The notes under the pieces are model-generated. The model was not told the DNA's origin. It did no database searches and worked only from the letters and a program-made list of their open reading frames with translations. Below are positions 2,011-10,730 of a stretch of DNA of 11,631 nt, one piece after another. The stretch lies in the NCBI GenBank assembly GCA_016839585.1, contig JAEOTZ010000063.1, positions 1 through 11,631 of the forward strand, read 5' to 3'. The position numbers and the translations under genes were made by a program. Origin of the DNA: Promethearchaeota archaeon. Its GTDB lineage: Archaea; Asgardarchaeota; Lokiarchaeia; Sigyniarchaeales; SOKP01. Each line of letters begins with the position of its first letter. Within the stretch, counting starts at the first letter, position 1.

Positions 2011-3093
2011 TTATTTAAATTCCTTCAAATATAATCTGTCATTATCTTGAGAAATTTTTGAATAATTAGAGAGGAAATCTAACATGAATTTTCTTTCAGA
2101 CTCATTCTGGGTTTTTGATAATCTAATTTGAAATTCAAGGTCTTTTTCATTTTCAATAGAAATCCAGTGCAATTTTTCAAAAAATCTTAAAATACATAAA
2201 AGAAACTCTTCTTGAGTACCAAAATTTTTAATTTCATTTTGTATTAAATTTATCCATTTTTCTCCGACATTTTTATTACTAAAGTTTATGATAATATCTT
2301 TATCTTCAGCCATTTTCATCCAAAAATAATAAGTCCTGTCATTAAGAATTCTATAATAATTTGTAAGGAAAGAGAGATTATGCTCGATAAGTTTAAACCT
2401 TTCTTTTTTAGCAATATCTTTTCTAAAAAGTAAATCTGTTTCTTTTAAATCAAATCTACAATATAATTCCGTATCTGAAAATGTAACGTCTGTGATTTTT
2501 GCACCTAATATACCAAACACAGCGGCATTTAATTTGCAATTTTCGAGAAAGAGATTTTTGTAAGTCCCAATAAATTCGAAAATACCGCTAGCATAGTGCG
2601 AATTTTTAGTTGCGAAAATATCTAGTTTCATTTCTTTTGTTAAATTGTTAGCTAAAAAAAAAGTTTTTATCCTATTAAACATATTTTTTAGTTCCTCATA
2701 ATCTTTTGGCCTTACACCTGTTATAAACATCCTTCTTATTGCAAATAAAAAACGAGGTACTTGTTTAAATCTGAATGTAGTATATCTATTTGCTCTAACA
2801 GCCATCTCATGAAATGGGATAATACCTCTAAATGTGAATTGATCGAAGAAGTTCATTGTTTGACTATCGACAAATCTTTCAAAATCATCGAGAGTCTTTC
2901 CTTTCTCAAAGCAATCCATTGATTTTTCCATGACATAATTGTAAAATGATGAAATACTAGTAAATCTCTTATCTTCAGGATCTTTTCGATGATTTACATT
3001 TACATACCTTTCAATCCAGTCTTTAAGGGCAGGGGATATTGATATTGTTTGTTGAGCTGTCTTTTTATTCGATAAATATTTTCTTGAAGTCAT
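2011..3093 (-). CDS. Hypothetical protein, 360 aa, possible N-terminal ribbon-helix-helix-like DNA-binding domain
   Basis: Long ORF with ATG start in AT-rich DNA. N-terminal QQTISISPALKDWIERYV...FTSISSFYNYVMEKSM has the strand-helix-helix pattern of RHH proteins. The remainder is not recognised. Confidence 0.85.
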   Translation of the reverse strand: MTSRKYLSNKKTAQQTISISPALKDWIERYVNVNHRKDPEDKRFTSISSFYNYVMEKSMDCFEKGKTLDDFERFVDSQTMNFFDQFTFRGIIPFHEMAVRANRYTTFRFKQVPRFLFAIRRMFITGVRPKDYEELKNMFNRIKTFFLANNLTKEMKLDIFATKNSHYASGIFEFIGTYKNLFLENCKLNAAVFGILGAKITDVTFSDTELYCRFDLKETDLLFRKDIAKKERFKLIEHNLSFLTNYYRILNDRTYYFWMKMAEDKDIIINFSNKNVGEKWINLIQNEIKNFGTQEEFLLCILRFFEKLHWISIENEKDLEFQIRLSKTQNESERKFMLDFLSNYSKISQDNDRLYLKEFK

Positions 3094-8325: not shown

Positions 8326-9027
8326 ATGATAAATATTGAAATTCGAAATCATCCAAAATTTTATAATGTCTATATATCAGGACCTCAAGAAAACTTAAAA
8401 CTCTATACTAAAAATTTAACTTTAGGGAATAGAGTGTATGGGGAGCGATTAATTAATTATAAGGGGATTGAATACCGAGAATGGGATCCCTTTAGGAGTA
8501 AGCTGGCAGCTATATTATTAGAAAAACCTATTACTAGCTTTTTAAATAGTAACTTAAAATGTTTGTATTTAGGAGCATCATCAGGAACAACAATTTCTCA
8601 TCTTTCAGATATTATTCATGACGGAATAATTTATGGCATAGAATTTGCGGAACGAAGTATGAGACAACTAATTCAAAATACGACTATAAGAGCAAATATT
8701 GTACCGATATTAGGAGATGCTCGGTATCCAGAGTCTTACTCAAATTCAATATTTACCGATATAGATCTAATTTATCAAGATGTTTCTCAACCAAATCAAG
8801 CTGAGATTGCTATTTTTAATTCAAATTATTATTTAAATGATGAAGGTACAATCATAGTAGCTATAAAATCTCAATCAATAGATAGTATTACTAAATCAGA
8901 AAAAATTTATAGACGTGAGAGAGATATTTTTGAAAAATCTGGTTATAAGATAATAGAAAGTATAAATATTCATAGATATGCTGCTAATCACATAGTTTTA
9001 ATAGTGAAGAAAAAGGGAATTAGTTAA
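8326..9027 (+). CDS. flpA: Fibrillarin-like rRNA/tRNA 2'-O-methyltransferase
   Basis: VYGERL, YREWDPFRSKLAA, LYLGASSGTTISHLSDI, YGIEFA, NIVPILGDAR, IYQDVSQPNQ. ATG 8326 preferred; TTG 8305, overlapping the nop5 stop, is the alternative. Confidence 0.97.
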   Translation: MINIEIRNHPKFYNVYISGPQENLKLYTKNLTLGNRVYGERLINYKGIEYREWDPFRSKLAAILLEKPITSFLNSNLKCLYLGASSGTTISHLSDIIHDGIIYGIEFAERSMRQLIQNTTIRANIVPILGDARYPESYSNSIFTDIDLIYQDVSQPNQAEIAIFNSNYYLNDEGTIIVAIKSQSIDSITKSEKIYRRERDIFEKSGYKIIESINIHRYAANHIVLIVKKKGIS

Positions 9028-9748
9028 AATATTCAGTAATTTTTCTATTCTCTACTTCTTCATTTAAGATTTTTTTTGTTGTATTCCATGATTTCCTGGC
9101 AAACTGAGGGGGTTTTTTATTTTTTTTAATCCAATCTCTGAGGAAATCTGTCGTTTTTATATCAGAAGGATAACCAGAGCCAAAATCACCAAACTTTTCT
9201 TTCAATTCTTCTATTAAATTATCTCTTATATCCTTTGCAATTATTGAACTTGCCGAAACTATAGGATAGGTATCATCAGCTTTATGTTTAGAAATAATTT
9301 GCCTTGGCATATATTCCAATAACTTTCTAATTGATTCTCCGAATCTTTCTTCATTGACATCCGCAGCATCGATATATATACTATCTGGTTTTAAATCATT
9401 TATAATCTCAGCAAATTTTAATTCTTCAAGTCTGTTCATAGAAATATTTCTCTCTTTTCTCTGATCGATCTCCTTAGCACTAATTACTATAACTTTATAA
9501 GAATGACAACTGTCTTTTATTGCTTTAGCTAATTCACTTCTTCTTTTAGTGGATAATTTTTTAGAATCCTTAACACCAATTTTAGATAAAAAATCTAATT
9601 TTGACCCATTAAAACAAACACCACATAAAACCATTGGACCTAAGACGGGCCCTTTTCGCATATAATTCGAATTGAACTATATTCTACCAGCCTCGTCTAT
9701 ACCACAAACTATATCTAATTCTTTATTATGATTCTTGGATGAGTTCAA
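9020..9748 (-). CDS. rnhB: Ribonuclease HII, interrupted by a 30-nt putative intron: complement(join(9020..9653,9684..9748))
   Basis: Exon 1 reads MNSSKNHNKELDIVCGIDEAG(R), from TTG 9748 with GAGGA 5 nt upstream (in-frame ATG 9766 is the alternative). Exon 2 reads GPVLGPMV...GVKDSKKLS...YIDAADV...HKADDTYPIVSASSIIAKDIRD...GSGYPSD...RKSW. The joined product is 232 aa with all catalytic carboxylate motifs. The ORF-track version from ATG 9661 lacks DEAG. Confidence 0.93.
9654..9683 (-). other. Putative bulge-helix-bulge (BHB-like) mRNA intron in rnhB
   Basis: - strand: GAC GAG GCT GGT AG|AATATAGTTCAATTCGAATTATATGCGAAA|A GGG CCC GTC. In-frame TAG at 9679-9677, a 9-bp internal stem, and two 3-nt bulges offset by a 4-nt helix. 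Removal restores DEAGRGPV. Confidence 0.8.
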
Positions 9749-10730
9749 TGAATTCCTCTTCGTCATCAATTTCTTCTAAATTTTTAATTCTAACAATAGG
9801 AACTTTATTTTTCAAGAAAGTATCTGGGATTTTAATATTGTTATTTACTATGAAGAGCGCAATTTTATGAAATAAGTCAGTAAACATTTTTAAACATATA
9901 GGATTTAGCTGTTTAATCTTGTTTTGATCTTCGCTAATTCCTGAAAAAAGAGGATAAAAACCTTCTATTTTAGACCTGTCAGTTTTGGAATATAAGGATA
10001 ATTTAAACGGGATAGAGCCTTTTTTATACCAATAAGAAGAAATTCCAATATCTTCGAATATTGATTGAACATGAGATTCAAAATCACTTAATTCGCTCTC
10101 CTCCATAAAAGCACATTGATCTATTTCATATTTGAATTTCCAGTCAAAAATATTGATTTTTTTAAAAACTTCACTATCTTCTAAAATGCTTTTAATATTT
10201 TCAGCTACTTTTTCAGAAGGATGCATACTTTCATTTTCATAAGCACATACAGTTCTTTTTGTGACTCCAAGTTTTTCTGATAATTCTTTTCTCGATATTG
10301 ATTGCTTTTCTCGCAGGGTTTTCATCAAATTACCATTTACAAATACAATCCCTCCCCCTCTCTTAGCAAGTATATAAGGATATATATTTTCCTCTAAGAT
10401 CTTTTCTAAAGTATTAAAAGTTATAAACGGCAATCCATTTCTAATATAAATAGTGTCATCTTCTAGTTTTTGATATCGATTCCTAATTCCAATTAATAGT
10501 GGCTTCGATTTTAGTATTAAGGATAAAGATTTAATATCATTAATTGTGTCGGGATTTATATTATCAATATTCGAGACAATTTTTAAGCTAAAAATTAAAT
10601 CATTCTTTTTGACTAATATATCAAAACAGAATTTGTTTTTTTTTGAGGAAAAATTGTCTAAAGCAAATGTCTCGAAATTTTCCTTCTTAAATAAAATATT
10701 AATTTTCTGAAGAATCTGATCGATCATCAA
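9726..10730 (-). CDS. Archaeal Xre-HTH transcriptional regulator (COG1395-like)
   Basis: N-terminal CFDILVKK...LKIVSNID...PLLIG...LEDDTIYIRNGLP, then AKRGGGIVFVNG and the HTH LREKQSISRKELSEKLGVTKRTVCAYEN. Start is TTG 10730 or ATG 10727. Confidence 0.88.
   Translation of the reverse strand: MMIDQILQKINILFKKENFETFALDNFSSKKNKFCFDILVKKNDLIFSLKIVSNIDNINPDTINDIKSLSLILKSKPLLIGIRNRYQKLEDDTIYIRNGLPFITFNTLEKILEENIYPYILAKRGGGIVFVNGNLMKTLREKQSISRKELSEKLGVTKRTVCAYENESMHPSEKVAENIKSILEDSEVFKKINIFDWKFKYEIDQCAFMEESELSDFESHVQSIFEDIGISSYWYKKGSIPFKLSLYSKTDRSKIEGFYPLFSGISEDQNKIKQLNPICLKMFTDLFHKIALFIVNNNIKIPDTFLKNKVPIVRIKNLEEIDDEEEFIELIQES

Follow-up and report, generated by a model that had tools for sequence, protein, structure and literature searches.

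The rnhB locus

The window, by which we mean the whole 11,631-nt stretch of Promethearchaeota DNA analysed here, has the nop5-fibrillarin genes on its plus strand; the HTH-rnhB pair lies on the minus strand. Read through, 9766–9023 encodes an RNase HII (PF01351, E 2e-46) whose closest rnhB relatives, at 93–94% identity, are from Promethearchaeota. It has ten additional codons, one of them TAG, that separate DEAGR from GPVLGP. The gene is the only RNase HII match in this 99% complete genome. We describe it as two exons flanking a 30-nt BHB-type intron that interrupts the DEAGR-GP catalytic motif. Exon 1 (9684–9766, minus strand, with a putative start ATG at 9766) ends with ...DEAG and the first two bases of an Arg codon. 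The intron occupies 9654–9683 in the EndA cut register, although the alignment alone allows 9653–9682 as well, and exon 2 (9020–9653) supplies the last base of Arg, then GPVLGP, and continues through the stop codon.

The upstream HTH gene ends at 9726 and shares its last 41 bases with the putative rnhB start (9726–9766) in a different frame, and at 9020–9027 the 3' end of rnhB overlaps the stop of the convergent fibrillarin gene. Elsewhere in the window, a 360-aa ORF without a Pfam match (2011–3093) is flanked by gatE-like and elp3 genes; judged by eye only, its N-terminus resembles a ribbon-helix-helix segment.

The insert as a BHB-type intron

A pattern search of 135 family genomes, together with fetched loci, yielded 81 complete intron-bearing alleles, 42 intron-less alleles of the same family and 21 alleles of other families, all intron-less. 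Family inserts are found at a single site and are 28–31 nt long. In the window (all on the minus strand), an outer, exon-exon helix joins 9690–9698 (the third base of Ile, Asp, Glu and bases 1–2 of Ala) to 9643–9650 (the third base of Gly, Pro, Val and base 1 of Leu). The 4-bp central helix pairs exonic 9686–9689, in which the third bases of the Ala and Gly codons are silent, with intronic 9656–9659, and has one G.G mismatch in this allele. The 5' splice-site bulge, AGA (9683–9685), would be cut after its second base, and the 3' splice-site bulge or loop (9651–9655) between 9654 and 9653; the latter measures 3 nt in the strict register (9655–9653) and 5 nt in the register of lowest energy. Between them lies an intron hairpin (9660–9682) of 9 bp (9682–9674 with 9660–9668) and a 5-nt loop, with the in-frame TAG at 9679–9677 inside it.

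These elements are conserved as structure. The central helix has all four pairs in 60 of the 81 alleles and three in the other 21, which include the window allele. Among the 72 distinct 30-nt alleles it is 92.7% paired, with two-sided changes in two of its four pairs (1 and 4); eight of the nine pairs of the intron helix show two-sided changes, and pairing falls to 29–46% when the partners are slid. The 3-nt 5' bulge is AGA, AGT or AGG and is closed by the 9-bp intron helix, which is the arrangement of an EndA-spliced intron. A cut after the second bulge base restores Arg in 81/81 alleles. The three alleles with an AGT bulge give this invariant Arg only in that register, and Ser otherwise, so that the intron is fixed at 9683–9654.

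All 78 frame-preserving 30-nt inserts contain an in-frame stop, compared with 44 inserts in one of the alternative frames and 10 in the other, and this stop shifts among codons 1, 2, 5, 6 and 7 across genera. A stop that moves but is always present suggests selection for termination of the unspliced mRNA. Because TAA, TAG and TGA are all found, lengths of 28, 29 and 31 nt also occur, and in 30 of the 78 inserts the stop is not followed by a start codon, recoding and re-initiation are excluded as conserved functions. We accordingly rejected one-stop recoding (Pyl, Sec or readthrough), which three stop types at shifting positions and inserts that are not multiples of three do not fit, and an internal-ATG isoform as a conserved feature, which the 30 inserts lacking a later start codon do not allow. 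A strict canonical hBHBh' assignment also failed: it needs two or more contiguous exon-exon pairs next to a 3' bulge of 3 nt, and the strict register offers a lone C-G pair followed by an invariant G.G (−6.2 kcal/mol in the window allele, vs −16.4 for the 5-nt register). As judged from sequence, the rnhB insert falls within the EndA-spliced class in a relaxed, HBh'/BHL-like form.

The exon-exon stem and its 3' register

A preliminary description of this DNA had proposed that codons on either side of the insert are chosen to pair with each other, and had placed the stem exactly: 9698–9694 pair with 9643–9647 and 9692–9690 with 9648–9650 on the minus strand, with A9693 bulged and 9655–9651 unpaired in this register. 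The stem is present in the ViennaRNA minimum-energy fold (−19.8 kcal/mol, z −3.6), and its pair probabilities are 0.89–1.00 at 37 C in contexts of up to 120 nt on each side. The central helix of the window allele, with its G.G mismatch, is predicted to be open in the free RNA. The flanking codons, noted earlier to end in G/C where window codons mostly end in A/T, are little used in the window (usage 0.16 for GAC, 0.22 for GAG, 0.12 for GGG, 0.12 for CCC and 0.13 for GTC), which has a GC3 of 0.19. The exon-exon duplex has an energy of −11.2 kcal/mol, close to the best possible value of −11.4; the mean of synonymous recodings, weighted by window codon usage, is −2.0, and exact enumeration of the 4608 synonymous recodings of both flanks gives P = 2.9e-5. 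This test is post hoc, and the weight therefore rests on the comparative tests below. Two of the eight stem pairs are fixed by amino acids on both sides and six have one silent position; the C9690-G9650 pair is formed in 7/72 distinct alleles.

The 5-nt AAAGG register that had been assigned to the 3' side is right for the window but does not hold generally: it is best only in GGG-CCC alleles (7/77), a 4-nt loop is best in GGY-CCN alleles, and most Ser (TCT) alleles do best with the strict 3-nt bulge, which a lone C-G pair closes. What is conserved is the distal stem, Asp-Glu with Pro/Ser-Val; the proximal register slides. GSVLGP replaces GPVLGP in 35 of 50 intron-bearing congeners (genus g1, L003–L033 and others) and is also found in L079–L080 (genus g23). 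The change from Pro to Ser may or may not be RNA-driven: with a TCT codon the outer helix takes up the strict 3-nt register, which gains 4.7 kcal/mol, but overall stability does not improve; Ser occupies the same position in 36/55 intron-less archaeal RNase HII.

Covariation, to which the preliminary description had looked for support of the outer stem, was found on both sides of pairs in the central and intron helices and not in the outer stem. There it is nearly impossible because the protein fixes one partner of nearly every pair; in the outer stem, pairs instead change on one side only (G-C to G-U) and purines are avoided. The silent sites with true covariation are Ala3 and Gly3 of the central helix. 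The outermost pair, 9698/9643, is A-U in 41 alleles and U-A in 8, a switch that combines a silent Ile change with a Leu-to-Ile replacement and probably arose in few events.

Silent sites with and without the intron

The mean outer-helix energy was −7.7 in intron-bearing alleles (n=81), −4.1 in intron-less alleles of the family (n=42) and −1.9 in other families (n=21), the synonymous null being near −2.1. At p<0.05 the null was beaten by 98% of intron-bearing alleles, 29% of intron-less family alleles and none (0%) of those from other families, for which the mean z was 0.13. We then drew 14 non-overlapping group pairs from a FastTree protein tree of rnhB and three neighbours, in which some internal branches are weakly supported and most of the 14 pairs are well-supported sisters. 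The duplex was stronger with the intron in 14/14 of these independent pairs (sign test p 1.2e-4).

The codon set is not retained in relatives that lack the intron. GAG is used in 80/81 intron-bearing vs 27/42 intron-less alleles, the third base of Gly2 is G or C in 63/81 vs 14/42, and that of Pro/Ser is a pyrimidine in 79/81 vs 28/42. Counted over pairs, the trend is 9:0 for G at Glu, 11:0 for G/C at Gly2, 9:1 for a pyrimidine at Pro and 8:0 for a base other than A at the central-helix Gly. The earlier claim about codons ending in G or C thus stands for the GAG, Gly and Pro sites and falls short for GAC (9:2, p 0.065) and GTC (8:2, p 0.11). Intron-bearing alleles of the g28 group mostly have GAT for Asp, and GAC is retained in 17/25 intron-less g28 alleles. 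Since the latter keep GAC together with partial pairing (mean −4.7, 40% with p<0.05), GAC alone is not diagnostic; some G/C bias is present there without an intron, and we read it as a remnant. Four nearby control codons showed no intron-linked trend.

In intron-bearing lineages the motif's five four-fold sites underwent 10–14 parsimony changes, compared with a minimum of 16 and a mean of 20.6 at 21 background sites; in intron-less lineages they underwent 11–16, against a background mean of 10.9. The Glu site changed once in intron-bearing and ten times in intron-less lineages. The silent sites of the motif are therefore slower than every background four-fold site, and this is so in intron-bearing lineages only. 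Intron-bearing genomes from other genera have ~40% silent divergence from the window in the rest of rnhB and differ from it at only 0–2 of the 8 motif codons; the intron-less sister G106, at 25%, differs at all 8. The four-fold-site constraint and the 14/14 pairs support the proposal that synonymous sites are under selection for the outer helix.

Two alleles that group with g28 deserve separate mention. An intron-less metagenome allele (L060:687-727) has a near full-strength outer stem of −10.3 and represents either a recent intron loss or an assembled spliced transcript. A second, intron-less rnhB of G100 (L096, G100:C7) lies on a short contig and was probably mis-binned.

Splicing enzymes, RNA-run data and genome scans

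The relaxed motif had led to the prediction of a tolerant endonuclease, and the genome encodes two EndA paralogues that agree with it. The nearest match of EndA alpha is the A. pernix catalytic subunit (E 7e-36); the catalytic His motif is kept, and K58 and R60 align with K44 and R46 of the Crenarchaea-specific loop (CSL/L1) of the A. pernix protein. The second paralogue is beta-like and its His motif is missing, as expected of a structural subunit. A broad-specificity, two-subunit (alpha-beta)2 EndA is thus predicted from the sequences. Cleavage of BHL substrates is conferred by the CSL loop and its Lys (PMC3241643), and an Asgard (alpha-beta)2 EndA with the CSL loop has already been described (PMC5829648), so that a tolerant EndA is a known property of the group. 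RtcB is also encoded in the genome. ARAGORN found only 29 tRNA genes, 18 of them with introns, in agreement with the heavily interrupted tRNAs of Asgard archaea.

RNA evidence comes from a single possible RNA run, X20, which is labelled metatranscriptomic and flagged as probably DNA. One X20 contig (depth 3, 98% identical) covers 9611–9890; its 250 letters include 4 mismatches, and the alignment has 30 gap letters. The only contiguous gap that agrees with the four depth bins is 9653–9682, a position obtained by depth arithmetic rather than listed, and no such gap occurs among the listed DNA-run pieces that span the site. The contig is either spliced rnhB or an intron-less DNA allele of a 98%-identical strain, and we take it as support, not proof. 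Among metagenome contigs, a search for the spliced junction gave eight intron-less genes of at most 88% protein identity to any family member; as these are not close to the window, none is a spliced transcript of its lineage.

A de novo genome-wide scan recovered rnhB among 796 candidates, which are mostly false and do not yield an intron number; the rnhB outer helix is the most extreme of them. The scan also recovered two further inserts. Removal of a 30-nt insert at G000:C62:43149-43178 (minus strand) restores a phosphofructokinase-like GGDDTLG motif, and removal of a 32-nt insert at G000:C5:68318-68349 (minus strand) restores a ubiquitin-E2-like FPENYPF motif. The likely pfk intron has a modest outer stem (p 0.03). 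The likely E2 intron has four central pairs and no extended outer stem, which indicates that such a stem is not a general requirement.

Mechanism, alternatives and history

We consider it very probable that the tRNA-splicing machinery splices the rnhB pre-mRNA and that purifying selection acts on its exon codons at the RNA level. We suggest that the central helix, which is weak and rich in G-U pairs, has its strands kept opposite each other until EndA binds, by the exon-exon stem on one side and the intron hairpin on the other. The enzyme would then cleave both bulges behind their second base, the 5' one being a strict 3-nt bulge and the 3' one a 3–5-nt, HBh'/BHL-like loop, and RtcB would join AG to A, so that Arg and DEAGRGP are restored. 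Compensation between outer-stem and central-helix strength is not supported across alleles (rho 0.08).

The codons could in principle have preceded the intron: self-complementary, G/C-rich DEAGRGPV codons would be ancestral, the intron would have landed there, and the codons would merely have been inherited. The protein does fix six to eight of the paired bases, the basal intron-less g18 has exon-1 codons typical of intron-bearing alleles, and intron-less genes of high GC pair strongly too (L061 −10.6, L067 −11.7). Simple inheritance is nevertheless hard to reconcile with 0–2 changes in eight motif codons despite the silent divergence of the rest of intron-bearing rnhB, or with motif sites that fall below every background site in intron-bearing lineages only. 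Such pre-adaptation may account for the site of the gain, not for the persistence of the codons; in a form without ongoing selection it is already largely refuted, and overall we think it very unlikely.

We hold a similarly low opinion of the idea that selection on the stem serves a purpose other than splicing, such as control of translation near the rnhB start or a DNA constraint imposed by a site-specific nuclease. The constraint follows the intron in all 14 pairs and lies exactly where a BHB outer helix is required, and other families are without it; these observations outweigh, in our view, the position of the stem 23 codons from the start, where rnhB overlaps the upstream gene, the residual pairing in some intron-less alleles, and the codon changes in G106 (below), which are apparently faster than drift. 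It is hardly credible that the insert stays unspliced, whether in a pseudogene, by recoding read-through or with translation from an ATG within it. A 30-nt insert does preserve the frame, and the window allele has an in-frame ATG at 9661, but the three stop types at moving positions, the lengths of 28, 29 and 31 nt and the many inserts without a restart codon speak against these readings. Moreover, truncation would leave the genome's only RNase HII without its catalytic Asp/Glu, and in ~80 genomes the gene is otherwise intact.

As for the history of the splicing signal, the intron state changes 14 times on a tree from the neighbours alone and likewise on one from rnhB alone, and a single gain would need 13–14 precise losses. 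We favour a gain that happened once, close to the root of the family, followed by ~13 precise losses, after which codons would have drifted back towards A/T, because position, length and sequence are shared and residual pairing is seen in intron-less members; repeated gain by homing or transfer could instead have given this pattern. In G106 (L103), 8/8 motif codons changed vs 3.0 expected from the rest of the gene, including AGA to CGT, and most other pairs show little excess of motif-codon change. The stem of G106 was possibly erased actively or lost with a short replaced tract, for which we found no donor among the alleles compared. Erasure after loss might reflect harm done by a leftover stem or by the restored site. 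A parallel with eukaryotic introns, in which codons form a splicing signal, introns are selected to keep a stop and the signal is sometimes erased after loss, is one we draw only tentatively.

Comparison with known introns and significance

The closest precedent is the BHB intron in the cbf5 pre-mRNA of Crenarchaeota (Yokobori et al. 2009, PMC2738675). It too is short, lies at a catalytic-motif codon of a protein gene, often has a relaxed motif, is cut between the second and third bulge bases in organisms with a hetero-oligomeric EndA, and is present in some relatives and not in others. The present case differs in the gene, rnhB, in the phylum, Promethearchaeota, and in that alleles with and without the intron alternate inside single genera, which permits a test of silent-site selection; the word 'synonymous' is absent from the cbf5 paper (PMC2738675). 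Non-canonical archaeal tRNA introns (HBh', BHL) resemble the rnhB intron in geometry, size class, enzymes and an exonic part of the motif (PMC3241643, PMC5829648), but the rnhB outer helix is built from codons of a conserved enzyme rather than from a tRNA arm. A census preprint on Asgard archaea (10.64898/2026.10.13.758758) treats tRNA introns and does not mention mRNA. The BHB intron in the 5' UTR of Haloferax HVO_1309 likewise makes an mRNA a substrate of the splicing endonuclease, but it lies in an untranslated region without coding constraint and is served by a euryarchaeal enzyme (PMC7714728). A literature search covering few subscription journals turned up no report of an intron in rnhB or in any Asgard mRNA. 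Within the searched literature cbf5 is the one documented archaeal gene with an intron in its coding sequence, and rnhB is the second.

Splicing also restricts synonymous choice near the junction in eukaryotic exonic splicing constraint and in the exon pairings of group I and II introns. The rnhB signal is unlike these: a protein endonuclease reads a helix that the two exons form in the RNA, and neither a spliceosome nor a ribozyme core is involved. Constraint on the exons is to be expected from BHB splicing; its comparative demonstration here is unusually clean.

Gene callers annotate the RNase HII of this genome as a truncated protein without catalytic residues, and the silent-site constraint is independent evidence that the inserts are functional introns rather than assembly errors or marks of pseudogenes. 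The case also lends itself to simple recoding experiments on the requirements of a relaxed EndA substrate. With ~80 intron-bearing and ~40 intron-less alleles interleaved on the tree, the family offers a natural experiment in the archaea closest to eukaryotes, which indicates that splicing by the tRNA endonuclease is strong enough to constrain silent sites.
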